Assembly (NCBI RefSeq): GCF_030013595.1
Contig: NZ_CP122768.1
Length of the DNA: 64,000 nt
From: Escherichia coli
GTDB taxonomy: Bacteria; Pseudomonadota; Gammaproteobacteria; Enterobacterales; Enterobacteriaceae
Direction: 5' to 3' (one strand)
A program made the position numbers and the translations under genes. Shown here piece after piece: positions 12,376 through 49,167 of the stretch; the first letter of the stretch is position 1; every line of letters begins with the position of its first letter. The notes under the pieces were generated by a model, which saw only the letters and a list, made by a program, of their open reading frames with translations, was not told the origin of the DNA and made no database searches.

Positions 12376-12453
12376 TATCGAATCGTAATTATGTGCAGAT
12401 GATTCGGCAGTCTATATCAGTTGTTAAAAATGACAACTTTTCGTTAACTGTAA

Positions 12454-12567
<114 letters not shown>

Positions 12568-12609
12568 CCCTAATATAATGCCCCCACAATAACACGAGGG
12601 GGTACAACA

Positions 12610-12996
12610 ATGTTCAATATCATGATTCGTAAATTTGGCGAGATGACTTTCGAGAAAGCTGGTGTTGCTCGTACCGAAGAAGAAGCAATGGCCTTAGTTC
12701 TGGTAGCACTGAGATCATCACCTGAGATTATCGACGCTGAATATGTAGCTGCTGAGGGTGAGATTAAAGAGATTAAAGCGGTGGCTAAGGAATTAGGTGT
12801 TAAAGGTTTCCGTAAGCTGAGATTGAATCGTGAGACTTATGTAATTGGACAGCAAGGACAATACCTAGATGAGAATACCGTGATTGTTCTACTGAATAAG
12901 ATTACCCGCTACGGTTGGAAGATTGAGCAATATAAAACGTGTTTCGAATTATACGAAAAAGGTTTGCTGGATACTCTGACCATCGTTCGCGCTTAA
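12610..12996 (+). CDS. hypothetical protein (prophage attL-proximal)
   Basis: 128 aa ORF with RBS GAGGGGG upstream; no recognisable family. Confidence 0.5.
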   Translation: MFNIMIRKFGEMTFEKAGVARTEEEAMALVLVALRSSPEIIDAEYVAAEGEIKEIKAVAKELGVKGFRKLRLNRETYVIGQQGQYLDENTVIVLLNKITRYGWKIEQYKTCFELYEKGLLDTLTIVRA

Positions 12997-13304
12997 TTAA
13001 TTTCTAATTTGGTGGGTGTAATTCCCACCGCTTTTTAAACTGGAGAATCAAACATGTTAGCTTTTATCTCATTCGTGGGAGGTAGTCTCACAACTATGAT
13101 TAGTCTTTCTTATCTTGTCGTTAGTATGGGGTGAGCAATGAAACAATTTCATGATGGCATTTCATCTAAGACATTCAAGAAAGAATATAGCGGATTGTGT
13201 ATTAACTGGATTGATTTGATTGGTGCGGTTGTGTTTGGTCTGGTAATTAGCATCAATTTTTAACGATATAAATATATCGTAATTCATTCAAAGAGGATTC
13301 AATT

Positions 13305-13646
13305 ATGAAAAAGACTATCTACGCAATTATTGTTTCTGTGTGTGTTGGTGGCATCGGTGGATTTGTTTGTGGGTATGACTATTCCGATACTCAACATCAA
13401 GAGACTATCCGGTCAAATAAGGCCGAGATTAAGGATCTGAATCAGGAGATTAGCCAGTTAGAAAATGCTCTCTCACTCAAAGACAGTGAATATAGCGAGG
13501 TTTATGCAGATAAACAAAAATATTGGAAAGAGAAAGATAATCTCGTTGTTTACGGGATGAAATTGTGTAAGAGCATGAAGGACGAGCGCAGTTGTTTAAT
13601 GGAACTTGCCCTTAAAGGTAACGTGACCATCGACTTCAAAGACTAA
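13305..13646 (+). CDS. membrane-anchored coiled-coil protein (moron-like)
   Basis: 113 aa; N-terminal hydrophobic anchor IYAIIVSVCVGGIGGFVCG then coiled-coil; RBS AAGAGGATTC. Confidence 0.5.
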   Translation: MKKTIYAIIVSVCVGGIGGFVCGYDYSDTQHQETIRSNKAEIKDLNQEISQLENALSLKDSEYSEVYADKQKYWKEKDNLVVYGMKLCKSMKDERSCLMELALKGNVTIDFKD

Positions 13647-13675
13647 TTAATTCAAATAACAAAGAGGATTCTATT

Positions 13676-13921
13676 ATGAAAAAGATTATCGCTGGTATCG
13701 TTCTTGCTCTGGGTTTGGTTGGTGCTGCAAATGCCGAACAATATGTACAGGGTGATAGTGTCAAGCGTGCTGCCGTTGCACCTTCTTTAAATCAACTGTG
13801 TACTGAATTAGCACAGGTTGCCGGAGTTGGTGACGATGACGACTTTATTACTGCGTGTGTGTGGAGTCATATCGAGGATATTAATAAACGTGATGCAAAA
13901 CTAACTGGAAAGAAATATTAA
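13676..13921 (+). CDS. small secreted protein (moron-like)
   Basis: 81 aa; Sec signal peptide MKKIIAGIVLALGLVGAANA with AxA cleavage site; two Cys in mature part; RBS nearly identical to that of the preceding gene. Confidence 0.55.
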   Translation: MKKIIAGIVLALGLVGAANAEQYVQGDSVKRAAVAPSLNQLCTELAQVAGVGDDDDFITACVWSHIEDINKRDAKLTGKKY

Positions 13922-13971
13922 TGACTTACTAACCAATGCCCCTATCGTTATAATACACGGTAGGGGCGTTT

Positions 13972-15666
13972 TTGTTTGGAAATGGTATGAAAACTAAACT
14001 ATATTCGTATATTCGCTTCTCGTCTATGCGTCAGAATGATGGTTCGAGTTATGAACGGCAAATCAGGATGGCGAGAGAGGTTGCGGCAAAGTATGACCTT
14101 GAACTGGTAAATGATTATCAGGATCTGGGTGTATCTGCGTTTAAGGGTGCTAACTCTAAAACAGGGGCGCTATCTCGTTTCCTTGATGCAATTGGTAGAT
14201 CCGTTCCTGTTGGTAGCTGGCTATTCATTGAAAACTTGGACCGCTTATCCCGTGCCGATATTGTCAGTGCGCAGGAGTTATTCCTTTCAATCATCCGTAG
14301 GGGAATAACCATTGTTACTGGCATGGATAACAAGATCTACTCGCTGGATACTGTTACCGCTAATCCGATGGACCTGATGTTCTCCATCCTTCTATTCATC
14401 CGTGGTAATGAGGAAAGTCAGACTAAGCGCAATCGTACTAACTCAAGCGCATTGATTAAGATTAAAGCTCATCAAGAAAATCCCCAGAATCCGGCAGTGG
14501 CAATCGAGGAAGTTGGAAAGAATATGTGGTGGACTGATACCACATCTGGTTATGTGCTTCCTCATCCGGTCTTCTTCCCTATTGTTCAGGAAGTTGTGGA
14601 ATTACGCAGGAATGGACGGTCAACCGCCGAGATACTGGATCACCTTAACGCGACATACACACCACCACCAGCCGCAAGTCACAAGAGGCATTCAAACTGG
14701 TCACGGGCAATGATTGAAAGGTTGTTCCATACCCGCGCTTTGATTGGTATCAAGGAAATCTCTGTAGATGGCGTTAAGTATGAGTTAAAGGATTATTATC
14801 CTCGTGTGCTAGATGACGCTGAGTTTTATCACCTTAAGAAAAGCATTGGTGTTAGAGCATGTAACTATGGAGACAAGGAAGAAGTTAAACCGATCCCCCT
14901 GCTTAGTGGTGTTAATCTGCTGAAATGTGATCATTGCGGTTCCGCTATGGTTAAGGTGAAAGGAACAAACAGACGGCCTAACCAATATCGTTATTCATGC
15001 GATGCAATGCGCTCTAGTCGTATTGAATGTGTGCATACAAACTGGAGTTTTCGCGGCGACCAATTAGAGAAAGCTGTATTGCAATTGCTGGCTGATAAAA
15101 TCTGGATTGCTGAAGATAAGGCTAATCCGGTTCCGGCTTTGAAAGTACAGATTGATGAAATATCACGCAAGATTGATAACCTGATTGCCCTTTCTGCTAT
15201 GACAGGAGCAACGAAGGAGCTAGCCGATCAGATTACTACCCTCAATAGCGAGCGTGAAACACTCTACAATCAGATCAAGATGGCAGAAGAGGAAATGTAT
15301 TCTGTGGACTCTCAAGGCTGGGAGAAGCTCGCAGAATTTGATTTAGAAGATGTTTACAACGAGGATCGCATTAAGGTCCGGTTTAAGATTAAGCAAGCTC
15401 TAAAACGGATCGGGTGTAGCAGGATTGACAAGTACAAAAACTTGTTTGTACTGGAATACATCGATGGCAAGACCCAGAGAGTTGTAATAGAAAATTCAAG
15501 AGGACCGAGGAAAGGCCGGATCTTCGTTGATTTGAAGACTATCAATGATAGGCAGATTCTGGAGAGTAACGGGCTTGTTCTGCATCCATGTTTAGACATG
15601 CTGACAGATAAGAACTGGAAACCAGAAGAGGAAATACCAGGTCCATTACAGGAATTTGGAATTTAA
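13972..15666 (+). CDS. large serine recombinase (putative prophage integrase)
   Basis: 564 aa; resolvase-type catalytic motif YIRFSSMRQ at N-terminus, Cys-rich zinc-ribbon segment CDHCGS...YRYSCDAMRSSRIEC and coiled-coil, typical of large serine integrases. Confidence 0.8.
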   Translation: MFGNGMKTKLYSYIRFSSMRQNDGSSYERQIRMAREVAAKYDLELVNDYQDLGVSAFKGANSKTGALSRFLDAIGRSVPVGSWLFIENLDRLSRADIVSAQELFLSIIRRGITIVTGMDNKIYSLDTVTANPMDLMFSILLFIRGNEESQTKRNRTNSSALIKIKAHQENPQNPAVAIEEVGKNMWWTDTTSGYVLPHPVFFPIVQEVVELRRNGRSTAEILDHLNATYTPPPAASHKRHSNWSRAMIERLFHTRALIGIKEISVDGVKYELKDYYPRVLDDAEFYHLKKSIGVRACNYGDKEEVKPIPLLSGVNLLKCDHCGSAMVKVKGTNRRPNQYRYSCDAMRSSRIECVHTNWSFRGDQLEKAVLQLLADKIWIAEDKANPVPALKVQIDEISRKIDNLIALSAMTGATKELADQITTLNSERETLYNQIKMAEEEMYSVDSQGWEKLAEFDLEDVYNEDRIKVRFKIKQALKRIGCSRIDKYKNLFVLEYIDGKTQRVVIENSRGPRKGRIFVDLKTINDRQILESNGLVLHPCLDMLTDKNWKPEEEIPGPLQEFGI

Positions 15667-15942
15667 GCGGCCTAAATCGACGTATAACGAGCTAAAACAG
15701 TTAAGGGGTACAGATGTACCCCTTTTTAATTTAATTGCGTTAGGCAGCGTAAGCAAGTTTCATAGTAGTTTCCTCTAAAATAATAAGTTCACTACTATTT
15801 ATCAGAGAAAATTGTCTTACTATTGCATTCTCTATCTGGATGTGGGTATAGGCGGGATTGAATACGGCAAAACTGAAACATTCCACTACTGCAATAAATC
15901 ACTAAACAATATAAAGAATATTGCAAGTGTGGAGTGGAACTA

Positions 15943-16254
15943 ATGCAAGATATTAAAATTCATTTTCAAGATTACAGTTTCGTTAAGGTTGATTGCTCTC
16001 CTTCTATCGGAATGGAATTAAGAGATTATTTCTCGTTTGAGGTTGAAGGGGCTAGGTTTAGCCCCCGTTACAAGTATTCTGGCTGGGATGGACGAATAAG
16101 ACTGTTTACGCATGAAAACACCCTACCAATTGGACTATTAAAAACGTTGGGTGTCTTCGTTAAAAATATGGGCTATTCAGTCTGGATTGACCCCAGATTG
16201 CTTGAGAAGGAAGATGTAACCAAAGACGCGATTAATGAATGGATTGATTCCTTA
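15943..16254 (+). pseudogene. UvsW-like SF2 helicase, N-terminal fragment (interrupted by IS1)
   Basis: MQDIKIHFQDYSFVKVDC... runs in frame into the IS1 left end; the frame continues on the other side of IS1. Confidence 0.7.
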
Positions 16255-16309
16255 GGTGATGCTGCCAACTTACTGATTTAGTGTATGATGGTGTTTTTGA
16301 GGTGCTCCA

Positions 16310-16585
16310 GTGGCTTCTGTTTCTATCAGCTGTCCCTCCTGTTCAGCTACTGACGGGGTGGTGCGTAACGGCAAAAGCACCGCCGGACATCAGCGCTATC
16401 TCTGCTCTCACTGCCGTAAAACATGGCAACTACAGTTCACTTACGCCGCCTCTCAGCCCGGTACGCACCAGAAAATCATTGATATGGCCATGAATGGCGT
16501 CGGATGTCGCGCCAGTGCACGCATTATTGGCGTTGGCCTCAACACGATTTTCCGCCACTTAAAAAACTCAGGCCGCAGTCGGTAA
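16310..16585 (+). CDS. insA: IS1 InsA
   Basis: 91 aa [43 protein letters not shown]..., zinc finger plus HTH. Confidence 0.9.
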
Positions 16586-17007
16586 CCTCGCGCATACAAC
16601 CGGGCAGTGATGTGATTGTCTGCGCTGAAATGGACGAACAGTGGGGCTACGTCGGTGCTAAATCACGTCAGCGCTGGCTGTTTTACGCGTATGACAGGAT
16701 GCGGAGGACGGTTGTGGCGCACGTCTTCGGTGAACGCACTCTGGCCACACTGGAGCGTCTTCTGAGCCTGCTGTCGGCCTTTGAGGTCGTGGTATGGATG
16801 ACGGATGGCTGGCCGCTGTATGAATCACGCCTGAAGGGAAAGCTGCACGTTATCAGCAAGCGTTATACTCAGCGCATTGAGCGGCATAACCTGAATCTGA
16901 GACAACATCTGGCAAGGCTGGGACGGAAGTCACTGTCGTTCTCAAAATCGGTGGAGCTGCATGACAAGGTCATCGGGCATTATCTGAACATAAAACACTA
17001 TCAGTAA
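16504..17007 (+). CDS. insB: IS1 InsB reading frame (expressed as InsAB' by -1 frameshift)
   Basis: 167 aa frame overlapping insA 3' end; DDE transposase core. Confidence 0.85.
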
Positions 17008-17022
17008 GTTGGAGTCATTACC

Positions 17023-18210
17023 GATTCCTTAGAAGTGTATTCCGGTAGCAATAAAATCAATCCTTATTGGTATCAAAGGGAGGCAGTCTTTCAGGGTATC
17101 CACAATCGCCGTAGAATGCTGGTTCTTCCTACCAGTGCCGGAAAGTCATTGATTGCTTGTATGCTGTCTCGTTGGTACTTAGAGAACTACACCGGAAAAG
17201 TGTTAATCATTGTTCCGACTACATCGCTAGTGGTTCAAATGAGGGATGATTTCATCGATTATAGGCTATTCCCTTATGAAGCAATTCATACAATGATGAG
17301 TGGTAGCGGGAAACATCCGGGAGACAGGTTAATCACGGTTAGTACCTGGCAATCAGCTTGCAAGATGCCTCCTGAATGGTTCCGACAATATGGAATGTTG
17401 ATAGTTGATGAATCGCATAAGGCTAGTGCCAAAAATATTACCAATATCATCAATGGAATGAATCATTGCCAATTTAAGATCGGCATGACTGGTTCCCCGA
17501 AAGAATCAAAGTGCCATTTAATGCAGTATGTCGGGCTTTTCGGTGATATTTCTAAGATCGTGAGTATTGACCGCCTGATGGAAGAAGGGCAGGTGACAAA
17601 ACTGAAAATTAACTGTCTTTTCCTTCGTTATACAGATGAGGAATGTAGCGCGGTTAAGGGGCGAGAATATGCGGAAGAGATCAAGTATATTACGTCTAAC
17701 CCACGACGAAATAAGTTTGCTTGTAATTTGGCGCTAAAACTAGCTAAGAAGGGCGAAAACGTATTCCTGATGTTCCGCAATACTAAGCACGGAAAACTTA
17801 TGTATGATGCGTTACAGAAGGTACACGACAAGGTTTATTATATTGACGGTGGAGTTAAGACAGAAGAACGTGATGAATTTAAGAAAATGGCGGAGGGTGA
17901 CACCGGGATCATTTGCGTTGCATCCTATGGTGTGTTCTCTACTGGTGTTTCAATTAAGAATTTGCATCATGTTATTTTCGGTCATCCAGTGAAGGAATCA
18001 ACTATCGTTCGTCAGAGTATCGGTCGTGCATTGCGTAAACATGGTTCTAAGGATATTGCAACGGTCTGGGATCTTATAGATCATCTGTGTATATTCGGTC
18101 GTAACGGAAAAGTCAAGCATAAAAATTATGCGGTAAAACATGCACTTGAGAGAATCCGCTATTATCTAACCGACAAGTTCAGCTATGCAACTAAAACAAT
18201 TGCTATATAA
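17023..18210 (+). pseudogene. UvsW-like SF2 helicase, C-terminal fragment
   Basis: Walker A LVLPTSAGKSL, DExH box IVDESHKA, helicase C-terminal motifs VASYGVFSTGVSIKNLHHVIFG and GRALRKHGSKDIATVWDL; in frame with the N-fragment across the IS1 target duplication. Confidence 0.7.
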
Positions 18211-18241: not shown

Positions 18242-18595
18242 TTATCCATTCCATCGTGATTTTTTCGATCTGGAATCGATATGCGTAAAGGTTTTATATT
18301 TGCCTAAGCCGTATTGAGTAGGATATTTCCCATCAAGATAAGCATGGACAATATCAGGGGAGACACCCTTGATCACAATGTCAGCCGCACGGCCTCGAAC
18401 GTGATAGCTGTTGGTTGCACCGCCTACATTCTTGTTATGAGTCGGGCAACGGTTGCCACTGTTAATAATCACTGGTTTACCGAAGTGCTCTCGTACATCC
18501 TCAAGAATTACCAGTAATTCAGCGTCGATTGTATCATAATCACATTTTCCGCATTTACATTTAAATTCCTTGCGAGAAAAATGCTTACTTAACAT
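18242..18595 (-). CDS. endolysin, peptidase M15 family (L-alanyl-D-glutamate peptidase type)
   Basis: 117 aa; zinc-binding signature SYHVRGRAADI ... FTHID typical of VanY/M15 phage endolysins. Confidence 0.75.
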   Translation of the reverse strand: MLSKHFSRKEFKCKCGKCDYDTIDAELLVILEDVREHFGKPVIINSGNRCPTHNKNVGGATNSYHVRGRAADIVIKGVSPDIVHAYLDGKYPTQYGLGKYKTFTHIDSRSKKSRWNG

Positions 18596-19675: not shown

Positions 19676-19846
19676 TTAGCCCCCTAATAACGAAAAGACC
19701 CCCGCCAGTGTCCTTAGCAATTGTTCATCCACGGTCATAGCCGGGAGTTCAAGCCCAAAGGACGTTAGCAGAGGTCTAATTGCTACGTTATAAGTGAGGG
19801 CGACAATCAAGAGATAACCAAAATATTTCTTAAGTTTATTCTTCAT
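19676..19846 (-). CDS. small transmembrane protein (holin/spanin-like candidate)
   Basis: ORF 19676..19918 trimmed to MKNKLKK...; hydrophobic segment YFGYLLIVALTYNVAI; start codon choice uncertain. Confidence 0.35.
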   Translation of the reverse strand: MKNKLKKYFGYLLIVALTYNVAIRPLLTSFGLELPAMTVDEQLLRTLAGVFSLLGG

Positions 19847-19865
19847 ATATTCACCCCTTTTATTA

Positions 19866-20144
19866 TTATTTTTGTCTGAGTAAATCGATAACTTGGTCAA
19901 ATTTAGCGTCCATCGCAACCACTTTCTTTTCTATACCGTGAAGGGTTTGTTCCATGCGATAAACTCTCTCGGCGATCTGGTCGTGGTTATTCTGCATTGT
20001 TTCAAACTTCTGATTAAACAATGCATCATTGGACTCTAATTTCGACAATCTATTTTCTGTGGCTAATTGATTTCGGTGAAGTCTCCATAATCCACCACAA
20101 ATTAAGGCGATAACACCGATACCGCCATATATAATTTCAGTCAT
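19866..20144 (-). CDS. membrane-anchored coiled-coil protein (holin or i-spanin candidate)
   Basis: 92 aa; N-terminal TM IIYGGIGVIALICGGLW followed by coiled-coil. Confidence 0.4.
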   Translation of the reverse strand: MTEIIYGGIGVIALICGGLWRLHRNQLATENRLSKLESNDALFNQKFETMQNNHDQIAERVYRMEQTLHGIEKKVVAMDAKFDQVIDLLRQK

Positions 20145-47345: not shown

Positions 47346-47903
47346 TTAAGACACATCAAATTCATCGTCTTCTTCTGGTTCTTGTTCTTCCGGTTCATCC
47401 ATTAATGGTAATTCTTCTTCCTCGTCTTCTCCCAAATCTGCATTTTCGAACAAGTCCCCTACTTCATTTAAACGACGCTCGATGATCTCCCTTAGCTTAT
47501 TCTTTAATGTTTTCTGGTCATTGGCAGATTCGAGAATTTCTAGGGCATCGATCGTACAAATCTGCAAAATAGTCTGCTTCACTTTCCCGCAATATTCCGC
47601 TAGTTGCTGTTCTACATAACCGACAGGAATCAGGAGGTTCATTTTTTCCTGATTCTCTCGTTCGGCTGCATCTGCCATTGCTCTTTCTCTGCGGAGACGT
47701 TCTTGATCAATCGCTTCTTTGATTGAAGTTTGTTTAAGTGGGTTAATTACGTTCTTTAGCACCCAATCGCAACCTTCCTTTGCCGGAACACGCCTCTTAT
47801 TGGTATTGTAAGGTAGTCCCCTTTCTAACCATCGCTTACCGCCACCATTCAATGTATAGCCATATAAACGGGAAATTTCTGTAAGGGTTAATTCTTCTTT
47901 CAT
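47346..47903 (-). CDS. wHTH DNA-binding protein, Nu1-like (terminase small subunit candidate or regulator)
   Basis: 185 aa; N-terminal LTEISRLYGYTLNGGGKRWLERGLPY resembles the recalled lambda Nu1 LADIFGASIRTIQNWQEQGMP...GGGKG region; acidic C-terminal tail. Confidence 0.4.
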   Translation of the reverse strand: MKEELTLTEISRLYGYTLNGGGKRWLERGLPYNTNKRRVPAKEGCDWVLKNVINPLKQTSIKEAIDQERLRRERAMADAAERENQEKMNLLIPVGYVEQQLAEYCGKVKQTILQICTIDALEILESANDQKTLKNKLREIIERRLNEVGDLFENADLGEDEEEELPLMDEPEEQEPEEDDEFDVS

Positions 47904-48394
47904 TGGTTATCCTCCATTAAATTTGCGTAATTTTATTTATTGGTTTTACGCAAAATCTAAGCGCCTAAATCGCATTCTAACGAAGGGAAAGATCCAGTAA
48001 TGGTAAGGGCTAGGAAGTGGGTTAATAGTCGCGTAGCGACCGCGCTAGGACTGCACTGATCACGTTTTAAAATCTCACACGCACATCAAAAACCGGGGTG
48101 CCGAAAACTCGCTTTATCTGACCCCGATCCAGAACCTAAATCATTTGTCAAGTCTTTCCGATTCAGTAAAGGGGAACATGCATCTAAGCTAGAGAAGCTC
48201 ATAAAGACTAAGTATGAATGCGGTGTTGTTAGTCGGGATGATATGCGAGACGGTTACACTGAAACGCTACCATTTGAAGCATTGCCGGAGATCATCACTA
48301 TCACCAACAAAATGATAAGCGAAAGCATCCTCGTAAGTAATTGATTCCTAAGCCCTGTCCTTGTGATGGGGCTTTTTTATTGGAAAAATTTTAG

Positions 48395-48745
48395 TTATTG
48401 GGGTTTACAACATTTAGGTTTGCCAATTCGTCTGGCTAACTCTTGCTGAGTGATTTCTGACTGTAAAAAAGCATTTAACAGCAATACCTTAGAGGCGACA
48501 CTCAAAGGCACTTCAATAAAGTGATCGTGACTATTTAATGGCGAAGGTAACGGGATAAGCTCGTTATCTTCAAAATAAAAATCAAATGCGGTCAGTAAAG
48601 CATCTTTTGCCGCTTCCATCGCTTCAGCAACTGTTTCGCCCTGGGTCAACGCTTCAGGGATATCCACAAAAGAAACCATATAACCGCCTTCCGGCGCGGG
48701 TGTAAGAGTGACGGGATAACGCATAATTTCGACTGTCTCTCGCAT
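48395..48745 (-). pseudogene. hicB: hicB 5' part (truncated antitoxin, toxin-binding domain retained, DNA-binding domain replaced by 5 phage-derived codons)
   Basis: matches recalled HicB up to ...ARRIGKPK then diverges to CCKPQ* at the attR core. Confidence 0.8.
48413..48421. repeat. attR core (TTTAGGTTT)
   Basis: identical to 12559..12567. Confidence 0.5.
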
Positions 48746-48768
48746 GTCATTAACCTTTTTAATTGGCG

Positions 48769-48945
48769 ATTAACTCAAACCGAGTTGCTTCAGGATTGCT
48801 TTACGCAATGGTTCTTTAATCTCATCGCAGGGGTGACGCGGCATGACACTGCGCCTCCCGTGAAACCTGAGTTTTAAATGGTTGCTGCCATTCGCTACAT
48901 CGACGCCCTGAGATTCGAGCCAACGTCTGAACTCGCTTTGTTTCA
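48769..48945 (-). CDS. hicA: HicA mRNA interferase toxin
   Basis: 58 aa from GTG start: VKQSEFRRWLESQGVDVANGSNHLKLRFHGRRSVMPRHPCDEIKEPLRKAILKQLGLS; below the ORF-track size cut-off. Confidence 0.8.
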
Positions 48946-49167
48946 CATCGCCTCCCTGCCGCTGAGTATATCAACAAAGTAAACATTAGTGTTTACCTCC
49001 GTGTGTAATTTGCTCGAAAATAGCACTAAATCGCCGCAACGGCAGAATGCAATGCAAAATCAGGAAGGAAGATTCCAGAATTTCTTTGCGCTAATTTGCA
49101 AAACTGAATAATAACCTCAAGAAACTATCGGCATCATAGCGGCAAAAGGTGAGAAAAAGGTGGCGGG

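Follow-up and report, generated by a model that had tools for sequence, protein, structure and literature searches.

What are the small genes that lie between the left attachment site (attL) of a prophage and its integrase gene, and in which state of the element would they be transcribed? We addressed this question for a ~36-kb prophage that interrupts the antitoxin gene hicB in the chromosome of Escherichia coli (contig NZ_CP122768.1), using a stretch of 64 kb around it, referred to here as the window. The initial annotation of this DNA had picked out three open reading frames (ORFs) on the plus strand, and proteins of 128, 113 and 81 amino acids (aa) are indeed encoded at 12610-12996, 13305-13646 and 13676-13921. 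Comparison with about 45 related loci (23 first, then 26 further loci from IMG/VR) shows that the three ORFs are genes under selection and belong to a hypervariable accessory array, which in the circular phage genome spans the region from attP to int. The best explanation overall, to which we would give an even chance, is a cassette-shuffled array that encodes exported disulfide proteins, likely serves anti-phage protection and depends for its transcription on the circular form of the element.

Gene content between attL and the integrase gene

The left end of the prophage is marked by a 3′ remnant of hicB (12454-12573, minus strand), which is the attB-derived side of attL and is annotated by RefSeq in the equivalent stretch of the related locus L001. 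Direct comparison of attL with attR gave the core TTTAGGTTT at both junctions (12559-12567 and 48413-48421), and the three ORFs therefore lie between attL and int, with the hicB remnant and the attL core on one side and, as had been claimed, the gene of a large serine integrase on the other (13987-15666, plus strand; Pfam Resolvase, Recombinase and Zn_ribbon_recom; phrog_95 integrase). The G+C content is 0.36-0.47 per kb from ~12560 to ~48420, against ~0.5 in the flanks; it is 0.377 over 13001-14000, compared with about 0.40-0.45 across most of the prophage.

Gene content at this position differs widely among relatives. DNA resembling 13040-13925 is found in 56 of the 5426 complete E. coli genomes, and both the 113- and the 81-aa genes in seven. 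Writing genes by the length of their products, the window and L001 share the order 128-26-41-113-81, which in L002, L015 and L019 is preceded by a 90-aa gene (90-128-26-41-113-81); L006 and L061 have 89-26-41-113-81. The 113-aa gene is missing from L012 and L013, with (90)-128-26-41-81, and from L005, L011 and L024, with 89-26-41-81, and the 81-aa gene is missing from L007-L009, in which 89-26-41 is followed by a 113-family gene only. The order (90)-128-26-41-137 occurs in L003, L022 and others, and 89-26-41-348 in L059; L057 has 90-145-29-41 and no cargo, its 145-aa product being the 128-aa protein with its start annotated further upstream. The cargo slot ahead of int may hold the 81-aa gene, a 137-aa gene with the same signal peptide, a 113-aa gene, the 113- and 81-aa genes together, a 348-aa gene without a signal peptide, or nothing. 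The 113- and 81-aa genes, each found without the other among relatives, are independent optional cassettes and not paralogs. Their presence or absence among otherwise near-identical prophages bears out the accessory status that had been proposed for the three genes.

The initial gene list lacked two ORFs that lie between the 128- and 113-aa genes on the plus strand. The first (13054-13134) is unannotated, follows a GGAG ribosome-binding site and encodes a hydrophobic protein of 26 aa; all 23 loci compared first have it, L006 as a diverged, still hydrophobic version of 27 aa, and in L057 its position is taken by an unrelated hydrophobic ORF of 29 aa. The second (13138-13263), sometimes annotated as hypothetical, encodes a 41-aa protein with a C-terminal membrane segment. 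It is present in all 23 loci first examined and in all 26 further ones, its ratio of nonsynonymous to synonymous polymorphism (pN/pS) is 0.00-0.23, and where its length varies it does so by in-frame indels of 3 nt. Directly 3′ of its stop codon stands the palindrome ACGATATAAATATATCGT (13263-13280), which is unique in the window, invariant in the alignment and able to form a hairpin of -5.7 kcal/mol. Across the related loci int and the 41-aa ORF are the only constant parts. The 26- and 41-aa ORFs are kept across relatives, so the core next to int consists of tiny membrane proteins and not of the genes flagged at the outset. Neither protein has a family match.

The 128-aa gene is itself an optional cassette for a cytoplasmic protein (pN/pS 0.04-0.33), missing in relatives that have an 89- or 90-aa gene only. 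The initial annotation had found no recognisable family for any of the three products; this holds for the 113- and 81-aa proteins, and fails for the 128-aa protein, which matches the uncharacterised phrog_14908 (PHROGs, E=4.9e-19). RefSeq calls it a "beta/alpha barrel domain-containing protein" or a "type I 3-dehydroquinate dehydratase"; these names are almost certainly misannotations, which seem to go back to a chance-level similarity to DHquinase_I (E=0.15, 12.6 bits, with a cut-off of 22.2). The 145-aa version of the protein starts upstream, within a terminator-like hairpin, and is probably an over-extension. A hairpin at 12579-12604 (plus strand; -11.9 kcal/mol, z -3.2) pairs CCCCC of the P′ arm with the Shine-Dalgarno sequence GAGGGGG of the first gene, and L003 keeps its stem via two changes on both sides.

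Two further hairpins on the plus strand resemble intrinsic terminators and stand at conserved junctions: T1 (13010-13030, -11.4 kcal/mol), which follows either the 128- or the 89-aa gene and is conserved in the alignment, and the strong T2 (13935-13970, -22.6 kcal/mol, z -5.3), between the cargo slot and int. The complete array reads from the P′ arm of attP, with a -10 element and a first translation-initiation region (TIR), through T1, the 26-41 pair with its palindrome, and the TIR-headed cargo slot to T2 and int. No Rfam family matched anywhere in the window, nor in a sensitive scan of 12380-14100.

Purifying selection acts on every cassette, with pN/pS below 0.55 for each of the five ORFs and at 0.0-0.5 for the 128-, 113- and 81-aa genes. 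No sign of diversifying selection was seen in the cassettes.

Cassette boundaries and the repeated translation-initiation region

Nearly identical sequences had been noted upstream of the 113- and 81-aa genes and taken as a duplicated expression cassette. The repeat is real and marks a cassette boundary. It consists of the TIR CAAAGAGGATTCAATTATGAAAAAGACTATC at 13289-13319 and a copy at 13660-13690 (both plus strand) that is identical at 29 of 31 positions; a search of the 64 kb with up to three mismatches returned these two copies only, 100 shuffles returned none, and a relaxed alignment widens the similarity to 63 nt at 75%. The first copy carries the ribosome-binding site AAGAGGA and the start ATG AAA AAG A. 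Paralogy of the 113- and 81-aa proteins was rejected, as the two give no alignment; because they are unrelated, the duplication extends no further than the ribosome-binding site, start codon and first four codons, which corrects the idea of a duplicated expression cassette.

The boundaries of homology fall on these elements. BLAST comparison of the window with its relatives gave breakpoints at 12995, 13319, 13648, 13734 and 13938. Homology to relatives that have only the 89-aa gene starts at 12995. Homology to relatives lacking the 113-aa gene ends at 13319, in the first TIR copy, which forms the left boundary of the 113-aa cassette, and restarts at 13648, close to the second copy, which is both the right boundary of that cassette and the head of the cargo slot. 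Loci with the 81-aa but no 113-aa gene are missing exactly the 371-nt unit from TIR to TIR, and in L024 the 81-aa gene is fused to the first TIR variant. At 13734 the homology of the 81-aa gene to the 137-aa gene ends, one base before the predicted cleavage site of their signal peptide, and homology to relatives with other cargo restarts at 13938, in the stem of T2.

Cassettes and their neighbours also have different histories. The int gene of the window is 98.7% identical to that of the group with 137-aa cargo, and the window cargo matches a group whose int is ~93% identical. Between L061 and the window the synonymous divergence (pS) is 0.09 for the 113-aa gene and 0.49 for the adjoining 81-aa gene. 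From such comparisons we infer that the cassettes are acquired, lost and swapped by homologous recombination at the TIR or leader and at the terminator junctions.

The 81- and 113-aa proteins

The N-terminus of the 81-aa protein, MKKIIAGIVLALGLVGAANA followed by EQ, is by inspection a signal peptide for type I signal peptidase (13676-13735): written as MKK-IIAGIVLALGLVGAA-NA↓EQ, it has a positive n-region, a hydrophobic h-region of ~15 residues and an A-x-A motif at the predicted site ANA↓E. The Sec signal peptide proposed in the initial annotation is thus canonical, and the identical 20 residues head the unrelated 137-aa protein of relatives, with ~93% DNA identity over 60 nt and a mature part of different descent. 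The mature 81-aa protein is predicted to fold as a two-helix hairpin (helices 27-49 and 55-77), with a predicted local distance difference test (pLDDT) score of 74-91 over residues 31-80. Its C42 and C61 are invariant in 16 cluster representatives. Two allele types exist, which differ by a pS of 0.49 at a pN/pS of 0.28.

The 113-aa protein, described at first as a membrane-anchored coiled-coil protein, does have a hydrophobic N-terminal segment, followed by a long helix and a C-terminal motif LCK-x6-CLMEL, in full V-x-[YF]-[GA]-x-x-LCK-x-M-x-x-x-x-x-CL[ML]EL. Both cysteines of the motif are invariant, even in distant homologs at 33-42% identity. The residues G23-Y24 are invariant too and fit the -3/-1 cleavage rule, and the N-terminal segment may be an uncleaved anchor or a signal peptide cut after G23. 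A lipoprotein reading (VSVC or GFVC) was discarded: the -1 residue is unsuitable and the Cys is not found in distant homologs. The AlphaFold2 (AF2) model has a mean pLDDT of 58.8 and places the long helix, with low confidence, at residues 27-90; it was too poor for a fold search.

By these features both proteins are predicted to be exported by the Sec pathway and to be stabilised by one disulfide each, and the view that two of the three products are envelope-targeted is supported by prediction. The exact 113-aa sequence is found on 613 contigs and the exact 81-aa sequence on 784, all database copies being labelled hypothetical. Searches of Pfam, NCBIfam, PHROGs and PADLOC with the two proteins gave only sub-threshold matches to coiled coils or hydrophobic segments, and nothing among described exclusion and defence families reached the curated cut-off in Pfam, PHROGs or PADLOC. 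A sequence search of solved structures returned only coiled-coil noise (keratin, Lpp, prefoldin) and one designed repeat protein, a fold search with the 81-aa model against the PDB and BFVD gave nothing at E<=0.001, and neither protein had a tblastn match in 50,697 deposited phage genomes at E up to 1. An exhaustive hidden Markov model search added to the 113-aa family three distant representatives only, together with two repeat proteins that are false positives.

A putative promoter split across attP

Promoters were sought as consensus sigma-70 matches with a threshold of 9/12, and in the integrated state the plus strand of 12380-13975 contains no sigma-70-like site of at least 9/12. Just inside the P′ arm stands a perfect -10 element, TATAAT (12574-12579, plus strand), and at the attR end of the prophage stands TTTACA (48404-48409, plus strand), a -35 element at a place where relatives have TTGACT or TTGACA. 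Reconstruction of attP brings the two together, and a complete consensus promoter exists in attP only. For the window, integrated in hicB, it reads TTTACA-18-TATAAT (11/12). The attP reconstructed from L001/L031 (hicB) reads TTGACT-17-TATAAT (11/12), that from L003/L032 (hicB) TTGACT-17-TATCAT (10/12), and that from L005/L030, integrated in ycdX, TTGACT-17-TATCCT (9/12). The crossover falls in the spacer between -35 and -10 in all four reconstructions, and neither the attL nor the attR forms of the four contain a promoter-like site. About 1% of shuffles reach at least 10/12 near the junction. In the distant relatives L027 and L028, too, TTGACA or TTGACT stands immediately inside attR.

We infer that the split site is a promoter existing in circular phage DNA only. 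Transcription from it would cover the first gene and might continue, by read-through, over the entire array up to and including int. Expression of the array, and perhaps of int, would then come chiefly from the circular form of the phage, following infection or excision, and integration would turn it down. Because the -35 and -10 elements lie on opposite sides of the crossover in a serine-integrase attP, integration would destroy the promoter and not merely uncouple it from its genes.

Directly upstream of int we found no promoter element conserved across cargo types. A conserved int promoter inside T2 was considered and rejected, as the TATAAT of the loop is missing in L007-L009 and the -35 region is cargo-specific. 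T1 and T2 have the appearance of attenuators or terminators. In the window the 113-aa gene has neither a promoter nor a terminator of its own, and T2 closes the whole 26-41-113-81 unit.

A second cargo slot and links to T4-type phages

In the circular phage genome a second cargo slot lies across attP from the array. In the window this slot, between the small-terminase-like gene and attR (47904-48395, plus strand), is empty or degenerate, with no ORF of at least 45 aa and a terminator at 48350-48374. Relatives share its first half at about 80-94% identity, and a 33-aa ORF at 48243-48344 resembles the C-terminus of a protein; possible contents of the interval are cos or packaging signals, a small RNA or what is left of a lost cargo gene.

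The same slot is occupied elsewhere. It holds a 101-aa gene in L030 and L031, and in L032 (691-1461; L004 2519-3277) the gene of a 256-aa secreted protein annotated as an LprI-family lysozyme inhibitor. Its identity to RB49p262 of the lytic T4-type Krischvirus RB49 is 67% overall and ~93% in the first 136 residues, which points to gene flow in the fairly recent past between lytic and temperate phages. The three distant representatives of the 113-aa family occupy the second slot in L027-L029; the one in L027 is flanked by a promoter, TTGACA-16-TATACT (11/12), and an intrinsic terminator, and has by its sequence the form of a textbook moron.

The leader of the 81-aa gene is itself related to that of RB49p262 (85-88% identity over about 51-54 nt), and that of the 137-aa gene, too, is similar in DNA sequence to the LprI leader. 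The similarity is confined to TIR and leader, and homology of the mature proteins to those of RB49-like phages was rejected. The prophage family also carries UvsW- and UvsY-like genes; given these and the LprI-like leader DNA, exchange with T4-type phages is therefore real.

Function of the exported proteins and alternative explanations

We propose that the 113- and 81-aa products would act in the periplasm or at the inner membrane and that their most probable role would be to shield the infected or lysogenic cell from competing phages, by superinfection exclusion or envelope protection. That they are Sec-exported, disulfide-stabilised proteins acting there against competing phages is a tentative proposal, which we hold at slightly less than even chances. 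Superinfection exclusion or receptor blocking had already been suggested in the initial annotation; nothing found here contradicts it, and it draws on the location of the genes, their export signals and the neighbouring cargo, including the LprI-family protein in a relative, with no match to a known family.

Several points weigh against this proposal and the circle-dependent transcription joined to it. Its functional part is taken from context, because neither protein has a homology or fold match to a protein of known function, and the AF2 model of the 113-aa protein is poor. The slot is not limited to envelope proteins, because the 348-aa cargo of L059 has no signal peptide. The split promoter is known only as a match to the consensus, read-through has to be assumed because transcripts would have to pass two terminator-like hairpins before reaching the 113- and 81-aa genes and int, and weak non-consensus promoters may be active in the lysogen.

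The strongest alternative is that the 113- and 81-aa genes are classical morons, transcribed in the repressed prophage and conferring exclusion or receptor masking, as had been suggested at the outset. Their envelope-targeted products, variable presence, position at a prophage end and low G+C content agree with this, the distant 113-family gene of L027 has a promoter and terminator of its own, and gp15 of HK97 provides the precedent of a small inner-membrane exclusion moron (PMC3594210). Variable presence is the part of the moron claim that stands; the independent promoter is the part that does not, since none of the five ORFs follows a promoter-like site once the prophage is integrated. The 113-aa gene also has no terminator to itself in the window, the whole 26-41-113-81 unit being closed by T2. 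Expression in the lysogen, which defines a moron, is doubtful here because the only consensus promoter is formed across attP and is broken by integration. Neither protein resembles known exclusion proteins in Pfam, PHROGs or PADLOC, and we regard the classical moron as possible, on balance doubtful.

A more specific idea, which goes beyond the proposal made above and which we rate as rather unlikely, is that of an "export slot". TIR and signal peptide would serve as a landing pad for periplasmic effectors traded by temperate and lytic T4-type phages, and array and int, together with the 26-41 pair, would be on only in the circular genome; the outcome would be transient exclusion or envelope remodelling at establishment and not lysogenic conversion.

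The two proteins might instead be directed at the host or at competitors, as factors of envelope physiology, toxins or signals comparable to the small helical enterotoxin STb. They are small and Sec-exported with an invariant Cys pair each, the 81-aa protein is a predicted helical hairpin, and many carriers are porcine enterotoxigenic E. coli or other animal isolates, which possibly reflects sampling. However, they show no similarity to any toxin or virulence family, no outer-membrane export system is encoded nearby, and the recognisable neighbouring cargo, LprI-like and common to lytic RB49, is phage-related, which makes a host-directed function improbable.

A role in lysis, with the 113-aa protein as an Rz-like spanin or a T4 RI-like antiholin and the 81-aa protein as its periplasmic partner, has very little chance of being correct. 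The 113-aa protein does combine a hydrophobic N-terminus with a periplasmic helix and Cys, and gives a weak match to the Rz-like spanin phrog_739 (E=0.0024, residues 2-76); moreover, no lipobox ORF or candidate outer-membrane spanin was found in the whole prophage, so the spanin of this phage is not accounted for. The match, however, spans the hydrophobic and coiled-coil part only and is an architectural resemblance. The 81-aa protein has a type I site and no lipobox, and the Cys in the hydrophobic segment of the 113-aa protein is absent from distant homologs. The genes are also dispensable, the 113-aa gene being missing in most relatives, the 81-aa gene in many and all cargo in one. They stand outside the late operon, which ends in the M15 endolysin gene and is encoded on the other strand, and on these grounds the spanin or antiholin role was rejected.

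That the ORFs are decaying or meaningless parts of a defective prophage, as an IS1 insertion in the UvsW-like gene, the degenerate second slot and a broken 113-aa gene in L010 might suggest, is highly implausible and largely refuted by the synonymous excess in all five ORFs, the in-frame indels of the 41-aa ORF, the hundreds of contigs with exact 113- and 81-aa sequences, and the C-terminal motif retained in 113-family homologs at 33-42% identity.

Other features of the prophage

The flank of the locus with ydcS and ydcR is found in 5409 of the 5426 complete E. coli genomes. The prophage family is carried by roughly 1% of them; integration sites of related elements are ycdX and a site adjoining a photolyase gene. 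The prophage combines a serine integrase, a siphovirus-like tail module, a gpA-type terminase and T4-like UvsW and UvsY genes. No nucleotide-level relative was found among the 50,697 deposited phage genomes, in which the sole match of the 7.9-kb head and terminase region was 137 nt at 71.6%, and we found no relevant literature on a hicB-integrating serine-recombinase prophage of E. coli.

The tail, head and gpA-type terminase genes are on the minus strand. The M15 endolysin gene (18242-18595) is the last gene of the late operon. Upstream of it on the minus strand are a gene (19866-20144) whose 92-aa product combines a membrane segment at the N-terminus with a coiled coil, and an ORF at 19676-19918, listed as 80 aa, whose likely product has about 56 aa and a membrane segment; these two (19676-20144) are candidate holin or lysis-accessory genes. 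An IS1 element (16255 to ~17022; left inverted repeat 16255-16277; insA and insB ORFs 16310-17007) lies inside the UvsW-like helicase gene and splits it into fragments with UvsW_N (108 aa) and ResIII/Helicase_C (391 aa), encoded by pieces at 15934-16281 and 17035-18210. Relatives have a single 497-aa gene, and the window prophage may be defective because of this insertion.

At the right end, the small-terminase-like gene (47346-47903) is followed, beyond the second slot, by the 5′ part of hicB (48395-48745) and then hicA. The truncated HicB has 116 aa, lacks its C-terminal end and gains about five phage-encoded residues; it adjoins intact hicA (48395-48946). Regulation of hicAB could change on integration or excision of the prophage, and hicAB transcription enters the right end of the prophage on the minus strand, towards the small-terminase gene.

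Comparison with known systems

If the proposal of a cassette-shuffled array with circle-dependent transcription is correct, the locus is a clean natural example of exported-effector swapping at the boundary between signal peptide and mature domain, an example of gene flow between lytic T4-type and temperate phages, and a case of integration-state control of accessory genes in which a serine integrase assembles and dismantles a promoter. It points to four uncharacterised small proteins of 26, 41, 81 and 113 aa that are predicted to reside in the envelope and that occur in roughly 1% of complete E. coli genomes as well as in Shigella. Current ideas are not overturned by it, and each of its main features can be set beside a described system.

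The closest parallel for the cassettes is found in the T4-type phages RB49 and phi1, in which PeSL (promoter-early stem-loop) elements are repeated regulatory cassettes between which orphan genes are shuffled (Arbiol et al. 2010, PMC2839356). As in that system, repeats flank orphan genes, differences in presence and absence are bounded exactly by the repeats (here the 371-nt unit), terminator-like hairpins with G/C tracts stand between cassettes, and the genes cluster in a hyperplastic region. One of the two phages is RB49 itself, to which the locus is linked by the related leader of the 81-aa gene and by the RB49p262 homolog of a relative. Unlike in PeSL, the repeat here is a TIR with the first codons or a whole signal peptide and not a sigma-70 promoter, and the element that carries it, a temperate prophage, is siphovirus-like and has a serine integrase. 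The locus is not PeSL in the strict sense, because no promoter-like hexamers of at least 9/12 accompany the hairpins T1 and T2; the orphan genes bounded by repeats are shared with PeSL, and the composite of a strong sigma-70 promoter and a stem-loop is not.

Circular forms of the insertion sequence IS911 carry a promoter at their junction. State-dependent promoters are also described for integrative and conjugative elements, namely Pcirc of ICEclc (PMC5812530) and the int promoter switch of ICEKp1, in which stem-loops in the 5′ region also attenuate transcription (PMC13023037). As in these three, the genes adjoining the site are predicted, here from the DNA alone, to be driven only once the ends of the element are joined. 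Unlike in all of them, the promoter halves of the present locus flank the attP crossover of a serine integrase, and the split promoter precedes accessory cargo as well as int.

Like morons such as gene 15 of HK97 (Juhala et al. 2000; Cumby et al. 2012; PMC3594210), the genes considered here are small, accessory and variably present and have envelope products. They differ from it in sharing an operon-like array without promoters of their own, and their products have no sequence relation to gp15 or YebO. The likeness of the 113-aa protein to the Rz/Rz1 spanins of lambda lies in the N-terminal membrane segment and the helical periplasmic part with Cys; unlike these, it has no lipoprotein partner, is encoded outside the lysis cassette and is dispensable among relatives.

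Imm, Sp (Spackle) and RI of T4 are small proteins, Sec-exported or signal-anchored, that are encoded in hyperplastic regions and have an early periplasmic role in infection. Likewise, the 113- and 81-aa proteins are small, predicted to be exported and encoded in a hyperplastic region; no sequence or fold similarity to the T4 proteins is detectable. As a class, the prophage accessory-gene cassette array is well known, and what distinguishes the present one is the swap junction in the TIR and leader, the pair of tiny membrane proteins and the promoter split across attP.

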